A stretch of 64,000 nt of DNA from the NCBI GenBank assembly GCA_043228905.1, contig JBHGNT010000020.1, positions 1,674,001 to 1,738,000 on the forward strand, written 5' to 3'. Made by a program: the position numbers and the translations under genes. This DNA is from Azolla caroliniana (lineage: Eukaryota; Plantae; Polypodiophyta). The notes beneath the pieces are model-generated. The model ran no database searches and had not been told where the DNA came from. It saw nothing but the letters and a program-made list of their open reading frames with translations. Shown piece by piece: positions 4,801-36,357 of this stretch (position 1 is its first letter; each line of letters begins with the position of its first letter).

Positions 4801-6259
4801 CGGAACCGGACAAGATCCCGAATCAGATTTGGATGGGGAACAAACGGAGGAAGCGGCAGTCAGAAACCAAGAACGGAGATATCCTCTCCAAGAGAGAAGA
4901 GCCCCTCGGAGATTTCCAGATGCGGAGCATGTGTTGCTAACCGATGAGGGGGAGCTAGAAAGCTTCGAAGAAGCAAAGAAGGACACCCACAGCCACAAGT
5001 GGTTGAGTGCCATGCAGGATGAGATGGATTCCCTACATGAGAACCACACATATGAACTGACGGAGTTGCCGAAAGGGAAGAGAGCACTCCAGAACAAGTG
5101 GGTGTACAAGTTGAAACCGGGAGATGCCGGAAATCCACCCATGTATAAGGCCTGAATCGTGGTGAAGGACTTCCTGCAAAAGAAAGGAGTGGATTTCGAT
5201 GAGATCTTTGCCCCAGTAGTAAAGATGACATCCATCCAGACGGTATTGGGCATAGCGGCAAGCATGGACCTCAAGGTAGAGCAACTGGATGTCAAGATGG
5301 CATTCCTACATGGCGACCTCGAAGAAGATATCTACATGCATCAACCGGAAGGATTTGAAAGGAAAGGGAAGGATCACTTGGTGTGCCGGCTGAAGAAGAG
5401 CCTATACGGACTGAAGCAAGCTCCCTGGCAATGGTACCGGAAGTTCGACTCCTTCATGACCGACCAAGGGTACCACAAGATGCAAGCCGATCACTGCATG
5501 TTTGTGAAGAAATTTGATGGAGGAGATTTCCTGATACTCCTCCTGTATGTGGATGATATGTTGATCGTTGGACGAGACCAAGGCAAGATTCAGATGTTGA
5601 AGAAGGCTTTGAACCGGGCCTTCTCAATGAAAGACTTGGGGCCGGCAAGACAGATATTGGGAATGCACATCAATTGGGACCGGTCGAAGAAGCTATTGTG
5701 GTTGTCATAGGAGAAGTATGTGACAAAGGTGCTTCAACGGTTCAACATGTCGGAGGCTAAACCGGTCGGATCGACACTTCCGGCAAATTGCAAGCGATCC
5801 AGAAAACAAATCCCGAGGACAAAGGCGGAGAAGACAGATATGATGAAGATAGCATATGCCTCTGCCGTCGGGAGCTTGACGTTGTCGTGAAGATTTTCGG
5901 CAATAGTGTGAAAATCCCATAAAACGTACGAAATCGAGTATGAATCACATAATACAATAATTGTGAAGATAACATTTTTAATATCTAAGTACAAAATGAT
6001 GGAGGTTTTGAATGCACTTTATTACACGAGAAATGGACAACTAAATGTCAAGATATGAGGGTATAAAGTTTGTGAAAAGAAAAGAGAAAATTGTGAGATA
6101 TCCCACATAGGCATGACAAATACGGCTCTCATCATATATAAGGTGGAGCAAAAGATATTATCTTTGTGTCTATGTGTGGAGCATAGAGAGTTCAAGGTAA
6201 CTTGAACTAAGAGTGGAGGTGGGCTAGCTACTCGTAAAGGGTTTTGGCCAACCAAAACC

Positions 6260-6418
6260 GGACCGGCGATGGAGACGGTGAACCGACGGCATCCAGCGAG
6301 GCACCGGTAACCGACGGCATCCGGCGACATCACCGGCATCCGGCAAGGCACCGGTAACCGACGGCATTCGGCGACGGCACCAGTAACCGACGGCATCCGG
6401 TGACGACATCCGGCGACT
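6260..6418. repeat. GC-rich imperfect tandem repeats (CACCGGTAACCGACGGCATCCGGCGA variants) inside element copy 1
   Basis: Recurrent CCGACGGCAT and CACCGGTAA motifs. Confidence 0.75.
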
Positions 6419-6463
6419 ATATAAATAAATATATAAATATATATACAAATATACATATACAAG

Positions 6464-6535
6464 GAGGGGAAGTAAGGATTCGAACCTTGCACCTCCGAGT
6501 TATGAGTCAATTGGCTTACCATTAAGCCATGCTAT
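6464..6535 (-). ncRNA. tRNA-derived (Met CAT-like) Pol III module, not a functional tRNA
   Basis: rc: AGCATGGCTTAATGGTAAGCCAATTGACTCATAACTCGGAGGTGCAAGGTTCGAATCCTTAC. A box TGGCTTAATGG, D stem GCTT/AAGC, loop CTCATAA, B box GGTTCGAATCC; acceptor stem unpaired. Confidence 0.7.
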
Positions 6536-8203
6536 TTAGTTGAAATTATATTTCTATCATTGTACTTTTACATGTAAATTCTCATACGTGAGAGCTAAAA
6601 TGAGTGACATAGTTATCATGCACCACATGTAATACATAAGCGCCAAATGGCAAACATGCAATTTATGCATGTCTTGTAACCTCACATGCATCATATGCAT
6701 GAGAGCATCTATAAAAGAAGGAAGGGGGAGGAGAAAAAACACGGTTTTTCTTATGAAAATTAAGAGGAAGAAATTCGTTATCAAATTGATCATGTAACTT
6801 GTTTCTTAAATCTAAAGTTAAAAGTTCAATCAATCTCTCTCAATCGTGTAATCTCAACTTCTCTCTTTCCCAATCTATCTTAAGTACTTTCTCGCTAAAG
6901 CTTGCGCCAAAGCTTGTACCGACTTTGAATCCTTCCGGTCCAGAACCCCGGCGGTTCCGCCTCACGATCCGCGCGTAGTGACGAATCTTCACGACAACGT
7001 ACGCAATGGTATCTACCCGGCCGGATATCGGATATGTAGTCGAAGTGGTGAGCCAGTTCATGAGCAATCCTGGAAGAGAGCACTGGAACATGGTCAAGTG
7101 GATACTCCGGTATCTGAAAGGCACCTCGAGTATGTGCCTCCGGTTTGGCTCCGGAAAACCCCAACTCGATGGTTTCACATATTCAGATATGTCGGCTAAT
7201 GCAGATACTAGCTTGTCGACATCCGGATATGTCATGACTTTTGCAGGGGGAGTTGTTTCGTGGCAGTCGAGGATGAAGAAGACGGTTGCATTGTCAACCA
7301 CGAAGGCGGAGTACATGGTAGTTGTAGAAGCCAGCAAGGAGATAATCTGGATGAAGGACTTCATCGAAGAGCTAGGGATCCAACAGGAGGAATACTGGCT
7401 CTACTACGACAGTCAAAGTGCCATCCACCTTACAAAGAACGCGGCCAACCATTCCCGGACGAAACATATCCAACGGAGGTACCACTGGATCCGGGAGAGA
7501 GTAGAAGATCAAGAGTTCTTGCTGACGAAGATCGACATGGAGGAGAACGGGTCGAACATGCTTACCAAGGTCCTGACAACCGACAAGCTGGACACGTGTC
7601 GAAAGCGGATCAGGCTGACAAGATATCCCATGCCAGAGTGAAGGGGGAGATTGTTGGGATATCAGTCTCTCTAGATGGGATCCGGTGATAAATAAAGAGG
7701 ACCCGGTGAGAACCGGAAGAGATCCGGAAACCGGAGGAGACCTAGTGAGAACCGGAAGAGAAGACATATCTGTAAATATGTTTTGAGTAAACCTATTGAG
7801 GCTATATTTGTAAATAGCCCTAAGTTCATATAAGTATAAATATGACTTAGGGCAATCACTTTGAAAAGGTTGTAGTTGTCATACTGTTGTAACTGTTGTA
7901 CAGAGAGAGCGTCAGAGAGAGAGTGTGTGAGATACAGAGAGATACTCTATTGTAACCGTCGATTGGCGAAGATACAGAGCTCGAGGTCGTTGCCTACGAT
8001 CCTCTGATTGTACATTTCTCCCATAGTGATAGTTGGAGTCTGTGGGCTCCCATGGTTTTTCCCTATTTCGGTTTTCCACATAAACATTCTGTGTATTTCC
8101 TTTGTGTACTCTCCATTTCCCATTTCTGTGTTTCATTCTCATAGAAGTGATTCAAGACTCGGTTGTAGCCGAGCAATATTCCACGCTAATCCTTGACAAT
8201 ATA

Positions 8204-9266
8204 TTCATCATAGCCGAATCGGCTTACCGGGTTCTTTTCTCGGGTGGATCGGCGTAGTTTCTCATTCGTAGAGACTAATGCTTTCTTCTCTCCATTGATC
8301 CGGATGTCGAGGCCTTCGAACTCACTATCGAAGGATTGAGTCGATTCATTGCCATCGAAGTGATCATCTTCATATTCTGGCATTTTCTCCTTACCTTTCT
8401 CCATCTTTAGACTAGGCCGAGATGTGCTTTGGTCGCTCAAGGGCTCTTGTGGCCCATTGAGCCTTGTCGTAATCAGGCTTTCTTCGAACATATGTTCAAG
8501 TCGATCTTCGACTTCTATCTCTATTTCGGCGGATTCCGGGTCGAGCGGAATCGGAGTCGAAGTTGTCTCTAGTCCGTACCAAGATGCGAACTCATCGAAA
8601 ACGACGTCTCTACATACTCGAGCTTTTCGAGTCGAGGGGTTATAGCACTTGTACCCCTTTTGCTCCAGTGAGTATCCCAGGAGGATACATTTCTCTGACT
8701 TCGGGTCAAGCTTTTGTCGCGTCTCGTCGGGGATGTGCACATATGCAATGGAGCCAAATATCTGAACATGTGATAGGTCGGGCTTCTTTCCGAAAAACTT
8801 CTCATGCGGGGTAACCTCATGCACGCCGGATATTGTACTCTGATTCATTAGGTAGACGGTTTTGTTCGCGGCTTCTGCCCAGTACGACTTTGGTAGGTGC
8901 TTTTCATTCATCATGACCCATGCTACTTCGAGGATGTGCCGATTCTTTCGTTCGGCTACTCTGTTCTGTTGTGGCGTATATTGACACAAAAACTCTTGTT
9001 GAATTCCTTCTTTCCGGAGAAACGCCGAAAATGTGTCGGAGAAGTATTCTTTTCCTCCATCCGACCGAAGACATTGTACATGTCGGCCCATTTCCTTTTC
9101 GACTCCGCTCTTGAATTTTTGGAAGTGTCTGAACACTTCGCTCTTTTGTTGCATGGGGTAGATCCAGGTGTGCCTAGAAAAGTCGTCAATGAAGGCCATG
9201 TAGTCTCAACATCCGCCGAATGTTGTCATTTGACCCATACATCAGAATGAATTACGTCGAGTACGC
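8204..9266 (-). pseudogene. Copia-1 integrase and INT-RT linker
   Basis: VIHSDVW, FIDDFSRHTW, LRSDGGKEY, PQQNRVAERKNRH, KLDPKSEKC. Confidence 0.92.
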
Positions 9267-10393
9267 TATCATGAAAAATCCGTCACTACATGCGGATCGT
9301 GAGGCGGAACCGTCGGGATCCTGGATCAGAAGGATTTGAAGTTTGCACTAGCTTTAGCGAGAAAGGATTTAAGAGAGATTGAGAGAGATTGATATGGAGA
9401 GAGAGAGAGAGAGAGAGAGAGATTGAGATTAAACCCTTGACTTTAGATTTCAGAGACAAGATACATCACCATTAGGATAACTTGTTTTCTTTTTTTATTA
9501 ATTTCTTTCCCAATTTCTTCATTAGTCCTATCTTGCTTAACCCCCATTCTTCTATAGATCCCCCCATGCATATGATGCATGGGAGGGTGCAAGACATGCA
9601 CATAATGCATGAAATGCCTAAGATGCATGTTTGCCATGTCATTTATCCAAGCTCTCATGTATAAGATTTTACATATTAAAAGTATAATGATAAAAAGATT
9701 ACTTTAAAGTCATGACTTAGCTTAGTGGTAATTCATTTGTCTCTTATCTAAGAGGTGCAAGGTTCAATTCTTACTTACACCCATAAACACAAAACTTTAC
9801 AAAGCTTTAGTCTTGTATTTACAAATGTTTAACTGCATATTACACCTTCAGTTGACCTCCAATGAACCAATGGAACAATTAGACAATTTTGTTCGTTTCA
9901 CACAAAAAAATCTTCAAGACACCATGCGTCGCGATCAACCTATTCGACCGACCCGACCAATCTGATCCGCATCTGCATCCGATCCGGTCCGTTCCGGTTC
10001 TGGTTCCGTCACCGTCCGTCTGTTCCGGTTCTCCAAAAACCATTATGAGTAGTTAAGCCACATCCATTCATACAAATAGTTTAGCCCAAGTCACCTTGAA
10101 CATTTTGTGCTCCACACATAGACAAAAAATAATAAGTTCTGGCTCTGATTATATAATGTGGGATCTTGATTTGTCCTATCTATGTGGGATATCTCACAAT
10201 TTTGTTTTTCTCTTCTTCTTCTCAAACTTCACACACACATAACTTGATATTTAGTTGTCCGTTTCAAATGTAGTAAAGTGCATTTGGAAGCTCTTCAAGA
10301 CATCCATCTTTTCGTACCAAGATATTAAACTAATATAAAATAGTATCTTCACTATTATTGTTCCATATTGTGTGTGACGAACACACTTGATTT
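9267..10393 (-). mobile_element. Non-coding TG...CA element copy 2 (inverted, diverged, one end lost)
   Basis: 9267-9360 is the reverse complement of 6900-6996 (TATCATGA from TGTCGTGA); interior collinear with copy 1; flank ACGC; the other end is replaced by telomeric repeats. Confidence 0.82.
9712..9780 (+). ncRNA. Degenerate tRNA-derived module homologous to 6464-6535
   Basis: TAGCTTAGTGGTAA...GAGGTGCAAGGTTCAATTCTTAC, with A and B box remnants at the homologous position. Confidence 0.55.
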
Positions 10394-11759: not shown

Positions 11760-13357
11760 TGTCATGATGTTTTCGACAAATAGTGTGAAACCACCCTCAA
11801 AAGAGAATAAAATAGTGGTCCAAATAAACTAATTTTCTTAAGTCAATTATAGTAATAAATGAAAGGATAAAAAGTTAGAAGAGGTTTTCGAAAGTAGACA
11901 AAAATACAGAAAAAGATGGGAAAAGAAAAGCTAGCCGTGGATATGAGGAGCAAGGTCAAGTAAAAAGCTCATATTTTCCTCATCAAATGTCCAAATTAGA
12001 AAAGAAAAGATGCATAAGAAAGCTAACCTAAAGAGCTTTCCAAGAGTATCTTGCATGTGAAATTTGAGGCTAGAAAATAGAAATAGTGAGGAAAAGAAAA
12101 GTCAACTCATATAGACAAGCTTTTTTTAGGGGAAAAAGGCAAGCAATCCTAAACCTATAAATAAGAGCCTATTCTAGTGAAGAAGGGGGGGAGGGAGAAG
12201 GAACGCAGAAGCTCTACTCAATTAGAAGGATCAACAACATCGAGAGGTGTCATCAATGAAGAAACTCCTTCTATACTCCACTCTCTTCTTTCCTCCACCG
12301 CTCTTCCCCCATTCCTTTATAAACAATCCTTCATATTCGCATCCAACCCATTGTAACATGATTCTTATATTATAAAAGAATCTATTATATTGATATAAAC
12401 TAATGTTTTCATTCATCTACCTGTCTTATGTGTAAATCTTGATTGTGCTTATTTGTTATCGTCATTGATGCTTATTTGTTTGTGTGTCTTGTGACAAGGG
12501 AGCGTTTCGGGCTTGCCCATGCACCTCTCCTTTCACAAAGGCATTCAAACCTACGTGTCTTATATGTTATCGTCATTTGTGCTTATTTGTTTGTGTGTCT
12601 TGTGAAAAGGGAGCATTTCAGGCTTGCCCATGCACCTCTCCTTTCACAAAGGCATTCAAACTTACGTGTCTTGCGTGTTAGTGTAAATCTTACTTGTGTG
12701 CTTGTGCAACTTGTGGCAAGGGAGCGTTCGGGCTTGCCCATGCACCTCTCCTTTCATAAAGGCGTTCAAAATTGTGTCTCCCGTGTTAGTGTAAATCTTG
12801 CTTGTGTGTTCATGCGACTTGTGGCAAGGGAGTTTTTGGGCTTTGCCCATGCACCTCTCCTTTCACAAAGACGTTCGAAATTGTGTCTCCCATGTGTAAA
12901 CCTTGCTTGTGTGTTCGCCTGTCTTGTAACAAGGGAGTGTTCGGGTTTGCCCATGCACCTCTCCTTTCACAAAGGCATTTGAAACTCTGTCTCTTGTGTG
13001 TGTAAGTAAGCCTTTTCCTTGTGTGTTCGCGTGTCTTGTAACAAGGGAGCGTTCGGGCTTGCCCATGCACCTCTCTTTTCACAAAGGCATTCAAAACTCT
13101 GTCTCTCGTGTGTGTAAGTAAGTCTTTTCCTTGTGTGTCCATGTGTAAGCCTTCCTCACATGCATTCATTCGCCTTGTGACTAGGGGTTGATTCGGGCTT
13201 GCCCATGCACCTCTCCTTTTCATAAACACGTTCGAATACTCGTGACTTGTTTGTGTAAGGCTTCCTTGTGGTGTGTGTGTGAGCCCTATTTCCTTCTCGT
13301 CCATAACCCTGGTTGCTCCGCTTCACGATCTGCACATAGTGACGGATTTTCACGACA
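11760..13357 (+). mobile_element. Non-coding TG...CA element copy 3 (same termini, different interior)
   Basis: Starts TGTCATGATGTTTTCGACAAATAGTGTGAAA and ends GTGACGGATTTTCACGACA; TSD GCGT/GTGT; removing it restores gag DPKD-A-DYSTWE; TATA CTATAAATA near 12155. Confidence 0.85.
12470..13235. repeat. About 7 tandem units of ~105-140 bp with core GGGCTTGCCCATGCACCTCTCCTTTCACAAAGGC
   Basis: Core recurs at about 12515, 12626, 12736, 12845, 12949, 13061 and 13201. Confidence 0.9.
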
Positions 13358-14084: not shown

Positions 14085-14437
14085 AGTTATCATGCTTCTA
14101 TTGTATGGGGATGATGTAGTGCTTTTAACAAATACTTTAGGAGATGCGCAAAAGCTTATGAGGGCATTGGAAGAGTTTCGCATGCATATTAAATTAAGTG
14201 TCAACAACTCTAAAATAAAGAGTATGCTTGTGAAGAGCCAAATAATAATAAATCATGCATTATGTACAATGATGAGTCAATTAAAAGTGTGAAAAGCTTC
14301 AAATACATTGGCCTTTAAGTTCCTTCCAATCATAGATTGAATCAATGTGCTACCCATTGCTTAGATGTAGGAAAGAGCATCTATTATACATTTGAGAACA
14401 TATGGAATCATTGAGAAATTAAGTGTTAGGTTCTCAA
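14085..14437 (+). pseudogene. Old RTE-X-like LINE RT fragment, the target of Copia-1 and of LINE copy 1
   Basis: MLLLYGDDVVLLTNTLGDAQKLMRALE, a diverged match to 34650-34995. Confidence 0.85.
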
Positions 14438-14451
14438 TCGATTCTAATCCA

Positions 14452-15234
14452 ATGGACAAAATGCTTATGAGTCACTTGATTTCTCTTCAAGAAACCATAA
14501 ACAAGCAAGGTGACGAGATTAGTACGTTAATGAAAGAGAATACTAAGCTCCAAAGTGTTGTCATTGAGAATGAAAGGCTTAAACAAGTGGTTGCAAAACT
14601 TCAAGAAGAGATTCAAGAATGTAAAAGAGCTTCTTTTGAAACAAATGAGTGCCTTAACAAGATTGAGTTAAAGGAAGCATTAAAAGAAGAAAAATTGGAC
14701 ACGATGAGGCGGGATGTAAGTGAGATGAAAAATGTATGTACAACGAAGTCATGGGCTGATGTATGTGGTGGGGATGTGCTATCAAACTCATCTAATATGC
14801 ATGTGATGCATCAAGATAAGAATATAGAAAGCATAGATGTCCGAGAATTGAAAGAACGTGAACGACGATCAAAGAACATTGTCGTCTATGGGATTAAAGA
14901 AGAGAGTATGGAAACACCCGCATCCCTTGGAAAGGCCATTGGTGAATTTTTTAGCATGCATTATGGGATGTCAGATGTGAATGTATATGGGGCACATCGA
15001 GTTGGGAAACATGGTGTTACTCACTCCAGAGAAAGGCCTATTGTATGCACAATGACAGATGATACAAAGCGGCGAATCATACTCGAAAATAGTTGGGTAT
15101 ACCTCAAAGGTACACAATGCTTTGTGAGTGAAGATCGTACTATCTCACAACAAAAAGCTTGTCGTAAATCATATGAAGAAAGATTCAAAAACAAGGTTAA
15201 GGATGTGCCTAAAGATGGAACTGTAGGCAAATAG
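14452..15234 (+). CDS. LINE ORF1p (coiled coil plus RRM/CTD-like region), N-truncated
   Basis: Heptad-rich region, then ERERRSKNIVVYGIKE, AHRVGK, RPIV, SEDRT. Confidence 0.82.
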   Translation: MDKMLMSHLISLQETINKQGDEISTLMKENTKLQSVVIENERLKQVVAKLQEEIQECKRASFETNECLNKIELKEALKEEKLDTMRRDVSEMKNVCTTKSWADVCGGDVLSNSSNMHVMHQDKNIESIDVRELKERERRSKNIVVYGIKEESMETPASLGKAIGEFFSMHYGMSDVNVYGAHRVGKHGVTHSRERPIVCTMTDDTKRRIILENSWVYLKGTQCFVSEDRTISQQKACRKSYEERFKNKVKDVPKDGTVGK

Positions 15235-15240
15235 GGACAC

Positions 15241-18200
15241 GTGATCTATGAGACTAACCCACGCCTTTTACGACTATGCTTTTGGAATTGCAATGGATAC
15301 CCATGGAATGCGGGATTTGGCATAGAGGAGTTCACCAATGACTCGGATATCACACTTCTTGTTGAAACATGGGAGCATGATACTCAAAGGATTCAAGGTT
15401 TAGGAAACTATAATGTACACTCTTTGATATGGAAGAAAAATCCAAGACAAAGAAGAGGACAAGGAGGGGTGGCATGTTTGATTAAGAAGGAAATAGAGAA
15501 ATATGTGTCAATCATAAAAAATGATGAAAATAAATGCTACATATGGCTCAAAATAGAAACACCTAATGATTTGCCCACTTTTGTAGTTGGATGTTACATT
15601 CATCATCAAGATTCTAACTTTTATGCTTGTTTGGATAAAGATCAACCGTTTGCCAATCTAGAAGATGATATTGCTTATTTCAAATCCAAAGGGGAAATTA
15701 TTGTCTTTGGTGACATGAATGATCGTACAAGAAGTTTCCAACTTGATTCACAAGAATCTTTCATGCCACATATGCAAATGTATAACCGCTCTTCTAGCGA
15801 TGAAAAAGATCCAGACCAATTTGGGAAGTTACTTCTACAAATGTGCAATAGTACCGGATTGCTTATTGCAAATGGTATTTCCTTATGGCCCAACACTAAT
15901 GGTTTTACATGTAGAAAACACAACGGAAATAGTGTGATTGACTATGTGCTACTTTCCGAAGGTATTTTGGATCGTATACATAAATTCTCACTTGGTGAAT
16001 GGACACCGGAATCAGATCATAGGCCTTTATGTATTGATCTCAAATGTATGCATAGGTTTGATTGTGAGAAGGCTATTGAAGATAATAAACAACCACACTT
16101 GAGCATGAACCTTAAGCGAGCACCCATGTATTCCAAGATGGTTGAGGATATGTTACAAATGACAAAGATACAACATGGTGCCACACTAGAATGCAAATGG
16201 GAAGCTTTCAAGAAAGTCATTCTCTCATGTACAAACAAATGTTTTTCGACCAACCGCACATCTTGGAAGTGCACCAAGAAACTTAGGAAAAAATGGTTTG
16301 ATAAAGAATGTCGTGAAGCTCGAAAGTGCCTTATGGTTTTGGATGTAGTTAAGGATAAAGAGAATTACCAAAAGCATTTGCATGAGTATAAAAGGCTTAT
16401 TCAAAGAAAGAGAAGAATATGGGAAGTTACTCAACAATTTATCCAAACGCAAGAGAAAGCACATGCATGTGCTAAATTTTGGGGAAATCTAAAGGGAAAA
16501 CGTGTTGAGAGTTATGGTGACTTAACTCTTCATGACTTGTCTATGCATTGTAAGAATTTATATGAGTTATCTCTTGCCGGAAAGATGATGTGTTATGGTT
16601 CTCTTTCACATATGCCTCCCTTCTTTACAATTGAAGATATATGCATAGGACTTAAGAAATTGGCCTCTCGTAAGGCAAGCGATCTTCAATGTATAAAGGC
16701 TGAAATGCTCAAATGGACGGGAAAGGAAGCACATATATGGATAAGCGATATGTTTAATGATGCATTGCAACATGGTATGTCGTACGATTGGACTACAAAT
16801 TGGATCAAACCTTTACATAAAGGTGGAGATATAAATAATGTAAACAACTATCGAACCATCATGGTTGGCTCATTAATGGCAAAACTATTTGGATGTATAA
16901 TGGAATCAAAGATAAGTGTATGGGCTGAAAAAAGTGGTAAGAGAGCTTATGGACAAGCTGGCTTTCGGAAACACCATAGCACCATTGATCACCTTATCAC
17001 CCTTCGAGTATTAATGGAGGAAAGTCGCCTTAGAGGTAAAGGTTTATATTGTTGCTTTGTAGATTTCAAGAAAGCTTTTGATATGGTACCTCGTGAGCAT
17101 CTTTGGAGGCGAATGGAAGAACTTGAGGTGCCAAGTGAATATATGCTTGCAATTTCCCAAATTTATGAGAAGGTTATAGGTTGTGTGCGCATGAGAGATA
17201 AACTTTCAGATTTTTTCAAAAGCACTATTGGTGTTAAGCAAGGATGCCCACTCTCACCAACACTATTTGGTCTATGCATTGATGAATTTGGAAGAAATGG
17301 TTACCAAGTTTGTAAAGGAAGAATGTGTTGAAGAAGTTGCCATTGGGAATGTTGTAATTATGCTTTTGCTATATGCAGATGATGTAGTGCTTTTTGCAAA
17401 TACTTTAGGAGATGCATAAAAGCTTATGAAGGCATTGGAAAAATTTTGCATGCATACTAAATTAAGTGTCAATAGCTCTAAAACAAAGATTATGCTTGTG
17501 AAGAGCCAAAAAAGAGATAAACCATGCATTATGTACAACAATGAGCCACTTGAATGTGTGGAAAGCTTCAAATATCTTGGCCTTGAAGTTCCTTCAAATC
17601 ATAGATGGAATGAATGTGCTACACGCCGCTTAGAGGCGGGCAAGCGAGCATACTATGCATTTGAGAACACATGCAATCTTGGAGATATTAAGTGTTGGGT
17701 CCTCAAGAAATATCTTTTCGACACTTTGGTGACACCGGTTCTTCTCTATGGGGTGGAAGTATGGGGCGGTAGTATCCCTAAATCTATGTGGAAAGAGTTT
17801 GAAAATGTCCAGAAGCATTTTCTTACCAAGTTTCTACAAGTTAAGAAACAAACGCCCTACACCCTCCTCCTCCTTGAGACGGGATCGCTTCCCATTGAGA
17901 TCATGGCCATGGAAAGGGTTGTTGAATACATGCTTAAGGTTCAAAAAAGCCCCTCGCATCGACTTCCTAGAATTGCGTGGGAAGCAAGCAAAAACATCCA
18001 AAAGACGCATAAAAGCAAAATTTTATGTTCCGGTTGGATGCAAGATATAGAAAAATGGTTTGGTAGATGGGATGTGAAACACTTGCTTCATGATGCATCA
18101 TTAGATTCCTCTATAAATGAGGCATTTTTGCAACGCCAATGTATCATGACATGGGACAAATGTGGAGGCTCATGCTTCACACATTATACTACACATGTTG

Positions 18201-18594
18201 CACCTAACTACAAAACCATATTCTTTGCGGAACGGGGAAATCGTACACATCCATACATGTTAGAGCCCATACTATTATCTGCCATTCGAACCATTGCTTC
18301 CATACGACTTAGCTCACATGCATTGTGATGTGAAACAGAGCGTTGGGGTACAAGTGATGAGAGTGGTCGGCTATGCACACTTTGCCCTAAACAAGTTCGC
18401 GAGTCTAAGTATCACACTTTGATACAATGCTCTGCCTTTGATCATATTCGACCATGCTTTCCACATCTCTTCGATCGAGCCCAATCTTTGCATGAATTCC
18501 TCTCACAACCACAATGTGCACTCTCGATTGCAACATTCATTGGTAAAGTTCTTGAACATCGAGAGTCACTACTCACTTTCACACATATCACGTG
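15241..18594 (+). pseudogene. LINE ORF2 (APE endonuclease, RT, C-terminal CCHC), disrupted
   Basis: WNCNG, GDMN, SVIDY, SDH; QAGFR, FVDFKKAFD, GVKQGCPLSP, LLYADD. Confidence 0.92.
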
Positions 18595-21500
18595 AAATGT
18601 AATATTTTTGGTCTTATAGGTCATATTTGACCTCCGAAGATGATAATATAATCTATCTATCTATCTCTCATTAGAAAATTCTTTCAATGCCAAACTAATA
18701 ACCACCAATGCTAGTGCCCAATCATTTGGTAAAGCTTTGTAAAGTGAGTGGATTCGCCATTGTTTTGATTATCACCAATTTATTAACATTCGAATTGTTT
18801 ACGCATAATTAAATGATTAGCCAATATATACAATTTGAGTGCATTTAACTATTTGTTGAGAATGCAGAGTAAGAGCATGTTGAAGTGGTATGCACTTTGT
18901 ATGCTATGTACTAGCTCTATTTTAATGTCGACAATAACATGGAAAGCAAATTTGGATCACAATAATGTCAAACTATCAAAAAATAAAGGTTATCGAAATG
19001 ACTACACCGTCACTCATAAGTTGTAATGGAATAATAAAAAAATGTTTAACTTCCTTGACCAGAGAGTCCCACTCTCTCTACTTGATGAATAAATCCATAA
19101 AAAACTATTCTCACTTTTGTTTGAATTTGCAGCATTCAATATTGTGTTTCCTTTTTCTAAGGCTTAGCATGAGATCCTTATGATTTACACCACCCTTTAC
19201 AAGGGTACATGTTTAATATATTGTGACAATTCTCAATAAGTTTATTGTGATCCTCCGAACAAAGAGCAACTATCTATTCATAACATTAACTATGGGAATT
19301 ACTATAGAAGCATATGCTTTGAATACTTGAGGAAACATGGTTATATTCACTCTCAAACTTCTTGTATAGAAAAGAAACTTGATCCGGTCATGACTTGTTA
19401 TCACTCTTTAAAACTTGTGTGATAGGGAAGGCAAAGCTCAACAAAGGCATCATTAGCGTGAATAATTAATTGAGGATGTTAATATCTCCTACAAATATCC
19501 AATTAGATGTTACTACACCAATATCTCTAGTAGATGACCAAGACAACCTATCCAGTCTAGAACTCAAAGGGGAACAATGGGTGTGACCACATTATATGAC
19601 ATTGATATTTCCAAATAAATAACTACACTGATGTGCCCAACCTAGACTTCATTGGGGACCTCGATTGTGAATACACATTAAATGGAAGAATGAGCCTCTT
19701 TCCTTGATACTTCCACATTTCTTTTGTTATTATTTTAATTTCATTTTAACACTAAACCATTCATTGGAATCCACTTGACGAAGCGATCACGAAATTTCAA
19801 TGGGAATTTGATTTGGATTTTTTAGATTTTTATTCGAAAAGTAACTTGGCACAATTCATTACTACCAACCTCCATGAATCAAGTTAATAACTCTTACGAA
19901 ATGCTTTCCTATGTGAGTTGAGCTCCAACTAATGTATCATATTGTCCCTTGTATGTATCGTCTATATTAAATTGACGAGCACATTTCAACTCCATGAATG
20001 CAAAATGTTACTTATCCTGTTATAGCAATAAGAAAAAGGAAATCATTATAAATTTCATATGAAGCATTATTTTGGTTTAGTTGCTTATTTTCTTTCCGGG
20101 TCATAATGTGCACAATTAATTGTAATGTCCACTAGGAAATGCTTGAGCATTGAGAATCATGTATCAATGCCACACATACTACATGAACATGTTGCACTTA
20201 GGACCCATATGCATAAAATAATATCTATTTTTAATCCAAACCTCCATCGCCAAAAAACGACTTCCTCTCAAAGTCATTTGCAAAAATAAATCATATTATT
20301 ATAAAATTTGTCAATCCTAACATCGTTCATTCAGTAAATGATTTATCATTTATCCTACACTCTCAATATGGAGCCTATTCCAACACTCTTCAACCCACAT
20401 TCCCACTTCATCATTCTTCCAAAACTCTCATACCCACAAAATGCCACTTTGGTGTGACATAATAAAAAATTCTACTAATGTTCGCGAAATTCCAACCAAG
20501 GTTTCGAAAAGAGATGATAAAGAAAGTGAAAGGGTTGAACTTCAATCAAAGACCGGAGTGTTAGATGTTTGGCTTCACATCACAAATGTTGCATGTTTGA
20601 TCAATATATCCGCATTAAGCTATGCAAGAAGGGGTGTTTAGGTGTAGAGTGTATGCCAAGACATATAATGGTAAATGTGCAAAACTTCTCTTGATGGCAT
20701 ATTTTCACATGACTCTAAATCACATCAATTATCTATTGCAAAAGAATATATCGTCCCCTACATACATGTCTGTATCTCCAACAACTAGAGGAAACACACA
20801 ATTTTGTAAACTTGCTTCAATTTTATCTAGGATAAGTTCTTCCATTTCTTAGAAGATTGGAATTTGGATTACCATTATAGAGAACTACCCTTTTGATGGA
20901 GTGCAAACTTTAAGATACGAAAGCGATGGATTGATTTTTTTAGCTCATGGAACTGGGATTTGACATGGTTGTGAAACTCGTAATATAAAGGGAAATTCAA
21001 AAAAATCAAGGAATAATAGATAGTAAACTTTTTATATTGGTTAGGTGGCAAGCTATAAATTTGTATTTTATCCGATTTTATGTTAAGCATTCAATGTAGA
21101 AGATAGATGGATATGTCTCTTAATACGACACTACAATTTATTGATATATGACACCCTTCTAAGACCATTCCAGCAAAAAACAATCTATTGATATGCAATA
21201 CAACCTTCTAGAATAGTCATAACTCAGACGTTTGCATGCATGACCTTATGGGTTTATCAACTATAAGCCAATGCTGAACAAATCCAAGTTTAATGTAGCT
21301 ACACGTACATTTTGACTGAAGCCAACGATGCGGTTTATCTAGAATGGTTGGATATGAGATTACGTTGATGTGGTGGCACAAATGTTTGTGTTGAGAAACC
21401 ATGGGACAATGTGGAATAAATGTAAAAAAAGGCAAAAAAACCACAAAGCATGAGTAATAAAATGCATGGTTAGTCAACAATAATATATTTAGAGATCACA

Positions 21501-26534: not shown

Positions 26535-27200
26535 CACCATCGATCACCTTTGGATTCCATCCCCATGAGCACATCGGAGACGCGTGGAAGAACTTGAGAA
26601 GTATCAGGTGAATATTGCAATTTCTCAAATCTATGAGAATGTGATATTTTGTGCACGTAGAGGAGATAGAATTCTAGATTTTCTCACTAGCATTATTGGT
26701 GTCAAACAAAGATGCCAACTCTCTTTGGTATTGCGCATTGATGAGTTGGAACAAATGGTTGATGAGTTTGTAAAAACAAGAAGGAATTGAAGAAGTTGCC
26801 ACACGAGAAGGTATTAATCAAACCTTTGTTATACATTATTACATAGGTGATGTGTGCTTTTCACAAATACTTTAGAGAATGCCAAAAGCTTCTAAAAGTG
26901 TATAGGAAAACTTTTGCATCCATATTAAGTTGAATGTTAGTATCTTATTTTTTCCAATGCTAATGGATCACAACTCAGAGATATGTGTAGGCTCACTTTC
27001 ACACATTATATCATATATATGTAATGCACCAAACTAAAACCATTTTCTTCTCTTAACAAGGAAATTGTATTGACTTATACATGTGCACATTTTGCCTTCC
27101 AAGTTTATGAGACCAAGTGTCACATTTGGATACAAATTTACAATGCACCACCTTCAACCACACGCGAGGTTGATTTCAATACGTTGTTTCTCCAATCCAA
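26535..27200 (+). pseudogene. Old decayed RTE-X-like LINE RT fragment
   Basis: AGCACCATCGATCACCTT and EELE..ISQIYENVI..IGVKQRC..IDELEQMV match ORF2 of the young LINE. Confidence 0.75.
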
Positions 27201-31632: not shown

Positions 31633-32502
31633 ATGGCAAATACTCGTAAAACCGCCGCAAAGTTTGGGGGTATGATTGATAATGAGCCGAGATCACCAAC
31701 AAATCTCGATTCTAATGCAATGGACAAAATGCTTATGAGTCACTTGATTTCTCTTCAAGAAACCATAAACAAGCAAGGTGAAGAGATTAGGATGTTAATG
31801 AAAGAGAATACTAAGCTCCAAAGTGTTGTCATTGAGAATGAAAGTCTTAAACAAGTGGTTGCAAAACTTCAAGAAGAGATTCAAGAATGTAAAAGAGCTT
31901 CATTTGAAACAAATGAGCGCCTTAACAAGATTGAGTTAAAGGAAGCATTAAAAGAAGAAAAATTGGATACAATGAGGCGGGATGTAAGTGAGATGAAAAA
32001 TGTATGTACAACGAAGTCATGGGCCGATATATGTGGTGGGGATGTGTTATCAAACTCATCTAATATGCATGTGATGCATCAAGATAAGAATATAGAAAGC
32101 ATAGATGTCCGAGAATTGAAAGAACGCGAACGACGATCAAAGAACATTGTCGTCCGTGGTATTAAAGAAGAGAGTATGGAAACACCCGCATCCCTTGGAA
32201 AGGCCATTGGTGAATTTTTTAGCATGCATTATGGGATGTCAGATGTGAATGTATATGGGGCACACCGAGTTGGGAAACATGGTGTTACTCGCTCCGGAGA
32301 AAGGCCTATTGTATGCACAATGACAGATGATACAAAGCGGCGGATCATACTCGAAAATAGTTGGGTATACCTCAAAGGTACACAATGCTTTGTGAGTGAA
32401 GATCGTACTATCTCACAACAAAATGCTCGTCGTAAAGCATATGAAGAAAGATTGAAAAACAAGGTTAAGGATGTGCCTAAAGATGGAAATGTAGGCAAAT
32501 AG
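31633..32502 (+). CDS. LINE ORF1p, intact, 289 aa
   Basis: Open from ATG to TAG; coiled coil then RRSKNIVVRGIKE / AHRVGK / RPIV / SEDRT. Confidence 0.88.
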   Translation: MANTRKTAAKFGGMIDNEPRSPTNLDSNAMDKMLMSHLISLQETINKQGEEIRMLMKENTKLQSVVIENESLKQVVAKLQEEIQECKRASFETNERLNKIELKEALKEEKLDTMRRDVSEMKNVCTTKSWADICGGDVLSNSSNMHVMHQDKNIESIDVRELKERERRSKNIVVRGIKEESMETPASLGKAIGEFFSMHYGMSDVNVYGAHRVGKHGVTRSGERPIVCTMTDDTKRRIILENSWVYLKGTQCFVSEDRTISQQNARRKAYEERLKNKVKDVPKDGNVGK

Positions 32503-32528
32503 GGACACGTGATCTATGAGACTAACCC

Positions 32529-35500
32529 GTGCGCCTTTTACGACTATGCTTTTGGAATTGCAATGGATACCCATGGAATGCGGGATTTGGCATAGAGGAG
32601 TTCACCAATGACTCGGATATCACACTTCTTGTTGAAACATGGGAGCATGATACTCAAAGGATTCAAGGTTTAGGAAACTATAATGTACACTCTTTGATAT
32701 GGAAGAAAAATCCAAGACAAAGAAGAGGACAAGGAGGGGTGGCATGTTTGATTAAGAAGGAAATAGAGAAATATGTGTCAATCATAAAAAATGATGAAAA
32801 TAAATGCTACATATGGCTCAAAATAGAAACACCTAATGATTTGCCCACTTTTGTAGTTGGATGTTACATTCATCATCAAGATTCTAACTTTTATGCTTGT
32901 TTGGATAAAGATCAACCGTTTGCCAATCTAGAAGATGATATTGCTTATTTCAAATCCAAAGGGGAAGTTATTGTCTTTGGTGACATGAATGCTCGTACAA
33001 GAAGTTTCCAACTTGATTCACAAGAATCTTTCATGCCACATATCTCAAGGATGCAAGAGGATATGCAAATGTATAACCGCTCTTCTAGCGATGAAAAAGA
33101 TCCGGACCAATTTGGGAAGTTACTCCTACAAATGTGCAATAGTACCGGATTGCTTATTGCAAATGGTATTTCCTTATGGCCCAACACTAATGGTTTTACA
33201 TGTAGAAAATACAACGGAAATAGTGTGATTGATTATGTGCTACTTTCCGAAGGTATTTTGGATCGTATACATAAATTCTCACTTGGTGAATGGACACCGG
33301 AATCAGATCATAGGCCTTTATGTATTGATCTCAAATGTATGCATAGGTTTGATTGTGAGAAGGCTATTGAAGATAATAAACAACCGCACTTGAGCATGAA
33401 CCTTAAGCGAGCACCCATGTATTCCAAGATGGTTGAGGATATGTTACAAATGACAAAGATACAACATGGTGCCACACTAGAATGCAAATGGGAAGCTTTC
33501 AAGAAAGTCATTCTCTCATGTACAAACAAATGTTTTTCGACCAACCGCACATCTTGGAAATGCACCAAGAAACTTAGGAAAAAATGGTTTGATAAAGAAT
33601 GTCGTGAAGCTCGAAAGTGCCTTATGGTTTTGGATGTAGTTAAGGATAAAGAGAATTACCAAAAGCATTTGCATGAGTATAAAAGGCTTATTCAAAGAAA
33701 GAGAAGAATATGGGAAGTTACTCAACAATTTATCCAAACGCAAGAGAAAGCACATGCATGTGCTAAATTTTGGGGAAATCTAAAGGGAAAACGTGTTGAG
33801 AGTTATGGTGACTTAACTCTTCACGACTTGTCTATGCATTGTAAGAATTTATATGAGTTATCTCTTGCCGGAAAGATGATGTGTTATGGTTCTCTTTCAC
33901 ATATGCCTCCCTTCTTTACAATTGAAGATATATGCATAGGACTTAAGAAATTGGCCTCTCGAAAGGCAAGCGATCTTCAATGTATAAAGGCTGAAATTCT
34001 CAAATGGACGGGAAAGGAAGCACATATATGGATAAGCGATATGTTTAATGATGCATTGCAACATGGTATGCCGTACGATTGGACTACAAATTGGATCAAA
34101 CCTTTACATAAAGGTGGAGATATAAATAATGTAAACAACTATCGAACCATCATGGTTGGCTCATTAATGGCAAAACTATTTGGATGTATAATGGAATCAA
34201 AGATAAGTGTATGGGCTGAAAAAAGTGGTAAGAGAGCTTATGGACAAGCTGGCTTTCGGAAACACCATAGCACCATTGATCACCTTATCACCCTTTGAGT
34301 ATTAATGGAGGAAAGTCGCCTTAGAGGTAAAGGTTTATATTGTTGCTTTGTAGACTTCAAGAAAGCTTTTGATATGGTACCTCGTGAGCATCTTTGGAGG
34401 CGAATGGAAGAACTTGAGGTGCCAAGTGAATATATGCTTGCAATTTCCCGAATTTATGAGAAGGTTATATGTTGTGTGCGCATGAGAGATAAACTTTCAG
34501 ATTTTTTCAAAAGCACTATTGGTGTTAAGCAAGGATGCCCACTCTCACCAACACTATTTGGTCTATGCATTGATGAATTGGAAGAAATGGTTACCAAGTT
34601 TGTAAAGGAAGAATGTGTTGAAGAAGTTGCCATTGGGAATGTTGTGATTATGCTTTTGCTATATGCAGATGACGTAGTGCTTTTTGCAAATACTTTAGGA
34701 GATGCACAAAAGCTTATGAAGGCATTGGAAAAATTTTGCATGCATACTAAATTAAGTGTCAATAGCTCTAAAACAAAGATTATGCTTGTGAAGAGCCAAA
34801 AAAGAGATAAACCATGCATTATGTACAACAATGAGCCACTTGAATGTGTGGAAAGCTTCAAATATCTTGGCCTTGAAGTTCCTTCAAATCATAGATGGAA
34901 TGAATGTGCTACACGCCGCTTAGAGGCGGGCAAACGAGCATACTATGCATTTGAGAACACATGCAATCTTGGAGATATTGAGTGTTGGGTCCTCAAGAAA
35001 TATCTTTTTGACACTTTGGTGACACCAGTTCTTCTCTATGGGGTGGAAGTATGGGGCGGTAGCATCCCTAAGTCTATGTGGAAAGAGTTTGAAAATGTCC
35101 AAAAGCATTTTCTTACCAAGTTTCTACAAGTTAAGAAACAAACGCCCTACACCCGCCTCCTCCTTGAGACGGGATCGCTTCCCATTGAGATCATGGCCAT
35201 GGAAAGGGTTGTTGAATACATGCTTAAGGTTCAAAAAAGTCCCTCACATCGACTTCCTAGAATTGCGTGGGAAGCAAGCAAAAAGATCCAAAAGACGCAT
35301 AAAAGCAAAATTTTGTGTTCCGGTTGGATGCAAGATACAGAAAAATGGTTTGGTAGATGGGATGCGAGACACTTGCTTCATGATGCATCATTAGATTCCT
35401 CTGTAAATGAGGCATTTTTGCAACGCCAATGTATCATGACATGGGACAAATGTGGAGGCTCACGCTTCACACATTATACTACACATGTTGCACCTAACTA

Positions 35501-35885
35501 CAAAACCATATTCTTTGCGGAACGGGGAAATCGTACACATCCATACATGTTAGAGCCCATACCGTTATCTGCCATTCGAACCATTGCTTCCATGCGACTT
35601 AGCTCACATGCATTGCGATGTGAAACAGGGCGTTGGGGTACAAGTGATGAGAGTGGTCGGCTATGCACACTTTGCCCTAAACAAGTTCGCGAGTCTGAGT
35701 ATCACACTTTGATACAATGCTCTGCCTTTGACCATATTCGACCATGCTTTCCACATCTCTTCGATCGAGCCCAATCTTTGCATGAATTCCTCTCACAACC
35801 ACAATGTGCACTCTCGATTGCAACATTCATTGGTAAAGTTCTTGAACATCGAGAGTCACTACTCACTTTCACACGTATCACGTGA
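32529..35885 (+). pseudogene. LINE ORF2 (APE-RT-CCHC) with one premature TGA at 34296-34298
   Basis: CGA in copy 1 is TGA here; C-terminus SSHALRCETGRW...RLCTLC...ESEYHTLIQC...R. Confidence 0.92.
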
Positions 35886-36357
35886 AATGTAATATTTTTG
35901 GTCTCATAGGTCATATTTGATCTCCGAAGACGATAATATAATCTATCTATCTATCTATCTCTCATAGACAATAGATTAATAGATATAGACAATAAGAAGA
36001 AAGAGTATGTCTATTATTAACCCTCTTTTCTAAGAGGTCTAGCACCAACAAGGAGAGAGATTAGTGTTCTCTAACTCAACACTTCACTAATCTCTCTTAA
36101 GCTCAAAGGTTACAAGAAGGAGGAGAGGAATCTCTAGCTCTAATCAATAGGAGATCTTTACAAATGGGAGAACCCCCACAAAGCCACTACTATGTGGTTT
36201 ATATAGCTTTCACGTTTAGGGTATGGGCCTTTCACATTTGGCCATCTCTTTTCTTTCCTTTCCTCTTGCTGTTTCCTCTTCGTACTACGTCCTTGTTGAT
36301 GCGTTCTTATTCGTGGCTGGTTGTGTTGTTATCCCAACGCTTAACATGTCCCCCAAC

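Follow-up and report, generated by a model that had tools for sequence, protein, structure and literature searches.

An outward-facing tRNA-derived unit in the LTRs of a coding Ty3/Gypsy family of Azolla caroliniana: a candidate TFIIIC site beside the Pol II promoter

LTR Copies in the Window

The window, a stretch of 64,000 nucleotides from Azolla caroliniana, contains three LTR copies, two of which bear a unit resembling a decayed tRNA gene. Their features are as follows.

5883..6996, plus strand: copy 1, solo LTR of a Phygy-type Ty3/Gypsy element; starts with TG, ends with CA, inverted ends
6466..6536, minus strand: whole tRNA-derived unit of copy 1 (tRNA positions 1-72); closest sampled gene tRNA-Arg(TCT)
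6529-6519, minus strand: A box of copy 1, TGGCTTAATGG
6507-6501, minus strand: CTCATAA stretch of copy 1
6486-6476, minus strand: B box of copy 1, GGTTCGAATCC
6709..6716, plus strand: TATA-like box of the putative LTR Pol II promoter of copy 1, CTATAAAA
9267..10361, minus strand: copy 2, LTR of an older subfamily, inside a Copia element; 5' end absent
9718-9728, plus strand: A box of copy 2, TAGCTTAGTGG
9761-9770, plus strand: B box of copy 2, GGTTCAATTC
11760..13357, plus strand: copy 3, a solo LTR flanked by GCGT/GTGT, from a sister family that shares the same ends; no tRNA-derived unit

Copy 1 interrupts the RT region of a Copia element, with ACGT duplicated on either side (5879-5882 and 6997-7000). 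At other loci, this LTR type is followed by a PBS or preceded by a purine tract (PPT). The tRNA-derived unit sits in U3, antisense to the element. Its A box lies about 180 bp from the TATA-like box in copy 1, and this distance is 160-180 bp in most subfamilies bearing the module. The LTR of copy 2 is on the minus strand, so its module reads on the plus strand. Copies 1 and 2 align at 68% in a self-BLAST (6470-7002 versus 9776-9261), and copy 2 does keep the module at the homologous place (9718-9770), as an earlier sequence-only reading of the window had claimed. The A and B boxes are separated by 32 nt in both copies, the same distance, read from the sequence, as in class I tRNA genes. The same reading had described an antisense A box, D stem, CTCATAA loop and B box in copy 1: the boxes and the CTCATAA stretch lie where it put them, but a 7-bp hairpin covering the A box is out of D-stem register and is absent in other subfamilies. 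The acceptor and anticodon stems of the copy-1 unit are broken. Copy 3 serves as a natural negative control for the unit.

The Carrier Element

LTR pairs of the family lie 6.4-6.9 kb apart in the genome, and members of one pair are 91-99% alike, which indicates that the family is young. With LTRs of 1.0-1.3 kb, the carrier is a gag-pol element of 7.5-8 kb. Its coding region fills the interior in the Gypsy domain order and comprises gag-like frames together with protease, RT, RNase H and integrase; it has no chromodomain. The primer site matches the 3' end of the host tRNA-Trp, and its named protein relatives belong to Riccia and Adiantum. A central CG was found in 50 of 61 left flanks of carrier LTRs, and matching 4-bp pairs flank the solo LTRs L001, L010, L019, L021, L025 and L029.

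The carrier is a protein-coding Ty3/Gypsy element of autonomous type, not a TRIM, and it is of Phygy type by its traits. The sequence-only reading had called copy 1 part of a 4-bp-TSD element; the ACGT duplication agrees with this, and the copy proved to be a solo LTR of the autonomous-type Gypsy element just described. Like Phygy as characterized in the portion of PMC6317226 drawn on here, the carrier has an NCGN target with a 4-bp TSD, a preference given there for Phygy alone, and it is short, lacks a chromodomain and has little interior beyond its coding region. Its primer, tRNA-Trp, is listed in that portion for non-chromoviruses. In contrast to the carrier LTR, no tRNA-derived unit is mentioned for Phygy in the same pages.

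Origin of the Unit from a tRNA Gene

A sequence-only tRNA profile was built from 36 tRNA genes of this genome. It scored copy 1 at 17.8 bits and copy 2 at 17.2 bits (E 1.3e-4 and 2e-4), versus 7.1 bits for the next match in the window and 6.7 bits for the best of 10 shuffled windows. A degenerate A+B pattern had 1120 exact matches in the genome, versus 0 for its reversed control. These scores and counts together indicate that the boxes are not due to chance. Judged by its letters, the LTR unit is tRNA-derived, in agreement with the sequence-only reading.

The unit is not a functional tRNA gene by either its cloverleaf or a covariance model. ARAGORN found no tRNA in the window copies, and Rfam, searched at E up to 10 with a 121-nt stretch included, gave the module no tRNA score; nor did Rfam return a 5S match. 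The absence of a covariance-model score is an outcome that the sequence-only reading had itself listed as speaking against its proposal. Under relaxed settings, ARAGORN called a tRNA in a few copies (L048, L064 and L136), with differing isotypes. The parent had been taken to be tRNA-Met-like, and this proposal was rejected: the triplet at positions 34-36 is CAT in only 4 of 78 copies and is mostly CCT, and among the 17 isotype labels sampled, the best fit is Arg(TCT) (37/54 in the young group, 31.7 over groups). The fit of Met is 28.7 in the young group and 27.4 over groups. The primer tRNA-Trp was also considered as the parent and fits less well than Arg (32.5 and 28.9, seventh of the 17 labels). 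All these margins are small, and nuclear Met and Arg(CCT) genes lie outside the sampled set, in which the only Met(cat) genes appear to be organellar.

Distribution and Dispensability

LTRs were picked blind to the module, as the first 90 of 382 matches to the LTR end plus primer site; a second sample consisted of 30 of 48 matches to the older LTR end, with 3 duplicates removed. A loose motif search found the unit in 64 of the 90 independently picked LTRs. The tRNA profile reached at least 8 bits in 53 of the 90, four of these being a different LTR; it is too weak for old copies, and hence, presence was read from the motif search and the alignment. With 27 of 117 LTRs excluded as other LTR families or as lacking U3, 91 LTRs (copy 1 included) were aligned and clustered on the sequence outside the module. 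Thirteen rows with indels over the region were dropped (L108, L109, L112, L118, L167, L168, L177, L192, L209, L227, L228, L240 and L244), which left 78 copies in 11 groups.

The sequence-only reading held that the module belongs to the family and is not a private SINE insertion, and the counts bear this out. In addition to the 64 of 90 LTRs, all 47 Phygy-type modules that were checked lie in this LTR, and none of them is a free SINE copy with its own TSD and tail; the check covered 50 of the 1120 pattern matches.

The unit is nevertheless dispensable. Three solo LTRs at different sites (L227, L228 and L240) share one deletion of it, so a module-less variant must have jumped at least three times, and sister LTR families with the same ends, including copy 3 of the window, lack it; the continued jumping of the deletion variant and the state of the sister families both lead to this conclusion. 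In a midpoint-rooted tree of the first 560 internal bases (69/90 intact copies, group 1 thinned to 6), the module-less families L205, L163 and L195 split from the module-bearing clade.

Conservation of the Pol III Boxes

Raw identity between groups was 0.86 for the A box versus 0.59-0.68 for the flanks, which is unremarkable LTR-wide, and the B box, at 0.75, fell below the LTR median window of 0.79. Because old copies have decayed, within-group differences were subtracted to obtain net divergence for 8 groups comprising 75 copies, which were chosen by LTR end and not by module. We compared 11 letters critical for Pol III (T8, G10, A14, G18, G19, G53, T54, T55, C56, A58 and C61) with the rest of the unit. 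Net divergence between the 8 subfamilies was 0.002 at the critical letters versus 0.149 at the other 60 body positions; outside the unit, it was 0.116 upstream and 0.265 downstream. The claim that the A and B boxes are better kept than the rest therefore stands between subfamilies. Permutation p values, which are rough inasmuch as only 8 related lineages are compared and columns are not independent, were 0.002 against the body, 0.0006 against the region from -40 to +94, and 0.012 against R/U5. Against the proximal Pol II promoter, the critical letters were not clearly more constant (p 0.066). Decay within subfamilies was alike at critical and other positions (0.11 and 0.12), the pattern predicted when only the master copies that jump are under selection.

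Positions 9, 15 and 57 alternate between A and G among subfamilies; in the box consensus, these positions are purines. Net divergence is likewise about 0 at the non-box positions 20-23 and 44-51, a constancy that TFIIIC boxes by themselves would not predict, and in the copy-2 subfamily, 4 of 6 copies have T in place of C61. The A-B spacing and the distance to the TATA box are kept across subfamilies, none of which has a fixed indel between the boxes. Downstream of the B box, the first T-run follows at a distance of 11 to about 390 nt, a variability that argues against a fixed transcript. The conserved box letters are those read by TFIIIC. The unit is family-wide and probably under selection.

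C-to-T decay in 42 young LTRs, taken as an indirect sign of the shielding from silencing that the sequence-only reading had proposed, was no lower at the module, so no methylation footprint was seen. Decay there was 0.083 at CG (2 sites) and 0.023 at CHH, and elsewhere in the LTRs 0.031-0.060 and 0.007-0.017, respectively; CG sites are few, subfamily variants confound the values, and mostly silenced copies are measured.

Recurrence in Other LTR Families

Pattern matches outside the Phygy-type family revealed that a 5.2-kb chromovirus also bears an antisense A/B unit. This element encodes capsid, RT, RNase H, integrase and a chromodomain, has a 5-bp duplication and no tRNA primer site, and is Tcn1-like by its traits. 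Its LTR begins with the unit, which lies 110-170 bp from the TATA box and whose B box comes to within about 16 nt of the LTR edge. Among 50 LTRs chosen through their TATA region, out of 2027 matches, 48 carried the unit. Ten of the 11 critical letters are unchanged between groups; at G10, 12 of 48 copies, including a young subfamily, have A instead. The box-constancy test for the chromovirus, in which groups are mostly singletons, was not significant (p 0.23). A third LTR, of chromovirus type (L185-188), carries another antisense unit, so the layout is present in two Gypsy LTRs besides that of the carrier. The Phygy, chromovirus and third-LTR units have only 25-30 of 54 letters in common, which suggests that they are separate captures or very old. 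Searches for the A+B pattern gave 1120 and 608 matches in the genome, partly overlapping.

We also observed a free 225-bp repeat, abundant in the genome and located in (CT)n tracts, that has two facing tRNA-like heads. One head matches the third-LTR unit at 49 of 58 letters, and neither resembles the Phygy unit.

Comparison with Known Pol III Promoters in Mobile Elements

According to the part of the Helenus report used here (Kojima 2024, PMC10886601), Helenus (TRIMp3) is the tRNA counterpart of Cassandra, one plant family of it is known, from Selaginella, and autonomous partners are argued to need Pol II. The unit of the carrier resembles Helenus as described in that part in its tRNA-derived LTR sequence, in conservation centred on boxes A and B, and in the lack of a working tRNA. 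Helenus, however, is non-coding, 311-1263 bp long and has a 5-bp TSD in plants, whereas the carrier is a coding element of 7.5-8 kb with a 4-bp NCGN TSD. The Helenus promoter is proposed to transcribe the element, and its sense orientation is implied by the text of that part; the unit in Azolla, in contrast, is antisense to the PBS and ORFs and lies beside a TATA box.

With Cassandra TRIMs, as portrayed in the consulted portions of PMC7215508 and PMC12786077, the carrier shares a Pol III internal promoter in both LTRs of a plant element. Cassandra is 5S-derived and non-autonomous, and its RNA is made by Pol III, whereas the unit reported here is tRNA-derived; a 2025 review (PMC12786077, in part) singles out Cassandra among plant LTR elements as the one that departs from Pol II transcription. 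The likeness to Cassandra that the sequence-only reading saw does not extend to the mechanism, since the unit is on the wrong strand of a coding gag-pol element.

Simian foamy virus miRNA units, in the excerpted account of PMC3993851, likewise place deletable Pol III elements in the U3 of a self-replicating LTR element; unlike the unit in Azolla, they produce defined hairpin RNAs with terminators, from non-canonical boxes and without a tRNA body. The mouse B2 SINE similarly combines tRNA-derived boxes with an antisense TATA box and has been proposed to form boundaries (PMC8136502, in part). It is a free SINE, and methylation and ChIP data show its boundary in that part. The open-access literature covered here did not describe antisense tRNA units with conserved boxes in the LTRs of coding plant Gypsy elements.

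A Candidate TFIIIC Site Beside the Pol II Promoter

The stems, the anticodon and the terminator distance have drifted, which suggests that any RNA made from the unit would probably be a by-product. Box spacing and the letters read by TFIIIC have been kept when such RNA features have not, and the unit would thus most likely do its job on DNA. We tentatively favour the interpretation that this outward-facing decayed tRNA gene is a candidate TFIIIC site helping the LTR Pol II promoter. TFIIIC binds the B box and is often found at chromatin boundaries (PMC8136502, in the part cited). Selection may preserve the two boxes so that TFIIIC can dock on them; once bound, TFIIIC could keep the adjacent Pol II promoter accessible or screen it from flanking chromatin, as has been proposed for B-box elements at boundaries (PMC8136502, in part). 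TFIIIB would sit on the AT-rich DNA in the direction of the TATA box. Such a unit would help the element but not be required by it.

It is possible, although we rather doubt it, that the unit is an inherited relic of an old tRNA or SINE insertion, with its constant letters reflecting an overlapping Pol II factor site or chance survival in a few lineages. The constant block does extend past the boxes (20-23 and 40-55), the unit is dispensable, box changes are fixed in active subfamilies, and "not a few" Repbase LTRs contain part of a tRNA according to the section of Kojima's paper used here (PMC10886601); the abundant 225-bp repeat, with one head resembling the third-LTR unit, is a further point on this side. 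A relic would hardly be expected, however, to keep exactly the critical letters of two boxes 32 nt apart while the sequence between drifts, to avoid any fixed indel between them, or to have its strand and U3 position in common among three LTR types.

A functional antisense Pol III RNA, for example a small RNA with a dampening or tuning effect on the element, is unlikely. The promoter is complete, with A and B boxes and AT-rich DNA upstream, older subfamilies mostly have a T4-T5 run within 11-39 nt that would define a unit of roughly 100 nt, and functional RNAs from foamy-virus U3 provide a precedent (PMC3993851, in part). Against this, neither a fold nor the anticodon arm or the acceptor stem is conserved, the first T4 of the largest subfamily is mostly 100-340 nt off, and RNA started in the chromovirus, whose B box is near the LTR edge, would enter unrelated flanks.

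Very improbable is a role in which the U3 copy in genomic RNA pairs with the primer tRNA and aids strand transfer. Split primer sites are found in Ty3 and HIV-1, the unit is on the strand needed, and the start of the A box and TGACTCC are in common with the host tRNA-Trp, the element's primer. But tRNA-Trp ranks below Arg in isotype fit, position 15 is G in most subfamilies and A in Trp, the constant letters are scattered rather than forming a single helix, and the chromovirus carries its unit without a tRNA primer site. Production of the transposition RNA by Pol III is scarcely credible: A and B boxes of tRNA origin do lie within the LTR, as in Helenus (PMC10886601, in part), but the unit lies on the strand opposite to PBS, gag and pol and reads outward from the 5' LTR, so it cannot make that RNA, the carrier is long and protein-coding, and no short non-coding derivative with a sense unit was found among the loci read.

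Implications

The TFIIIC interpretation, extended to all three LTR types, raises the conjecture, about which we are doubtful, that several unrelated coding Gypsy lineages independently fixed an outward tRNA promoter at the upstream LTR edge and employ Pol III factors of the host as an anti-silencing barrier for their Pol II promoter, that is, a portable tDNA insulator serving as a general survival device of retrotransposons. In the non-coding Cassandra and Helenus, Pol III boxes are described as producing the RNA of the element; those reported here are carried by coding elements, in an orientation unsuited to that task, and they recur in LTRs of three types within a single genome. Without TFIIIC binding, they are a caution for tRNA and SINE annotation. 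If TFIIIC binds, well over a thousand sites would be spread genome-wide (the two partly overlapping sets of pattern matches), and tDNA-type insulation in plants would become directly testable. Transposons of this fern would then have co-opted the barrier function of tRNA genes to sustain the activity of their own promoters.

LTR variants with and without the tRNA-derived unit

A variant of the Phygy-type LTR (the LTR of a protein-coding Ty3/Gypsy element) that lacks the tRNA-derived module was found at three different insertion sites (L227, L228 and L240), with a deletion common to all three. A sister family, whose LTRs have the same ends, is represented in the window by one solo LTR, whose TATA box is followed downstream by about six tandem repeats of 110 bp.

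Window 11760-13357: solo LTR of this sister family, without tRNA unit

Directly beyond the tRNA-derived unit, short GC-rich tandem repeats of variable copy number (window 6290-6415) are the chief cause of LTR length variation.

tRNA-like units in other LTRs

An antisense tRNA-like A/B unit also forms the start of the Tcn1-like chromovirus LTR, in one young subfamily of which A-box G10 is changed to A; the TATA pattern of this chromovirus has approximately 2000 matches in the host genome (G000).

L277:416-866 and L277:5640-6090 (G000:C1:14482000-14488900): Tcn1-like chromovirus LTRs

At a chimeric junction occurring four times, all on C4 (L185-L188), the 3' LTR of a chromovirus, bearing an antisense tRNA-like unit of its own, passes into Phygy U5 and the primer site. 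In a distant LTR the promoter region is Phygy-like and two tRNA-like units stand in tandem (L283, ~1843).

Other repeats

The window holds two copies of a LINE-like element (14438-18669 and 31706-35959; 97.7% identity), as well as fragments. Genes for tRNA-Trp and tRNA-Arg(TCT), many of them degenerate, lie in large tandem arrays in the genome.

Window 14086-14437 and 26566-26945: LINE-like element fragments
G000:C8:17.79-17.83 Mb, C16:4.96-5.11 Mb, C5:10.10-10.13 Mb and C22:1.43-1.51 Mb: tRNA-Trp/tRNA-Arg(TCT) arrays

A free 225-bp repeat

Two convergent tRNA-like heads characterize a free 225-bp repeat, which is set nearly always in (CT)n tracts, sometimes as tandem copies, with about 2000 candidates at first look.

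Centre of L376-L399; L281:1660-1885: free 225-bp repeat

This repeat may be either a SINE or a microsatellite-targeting element.
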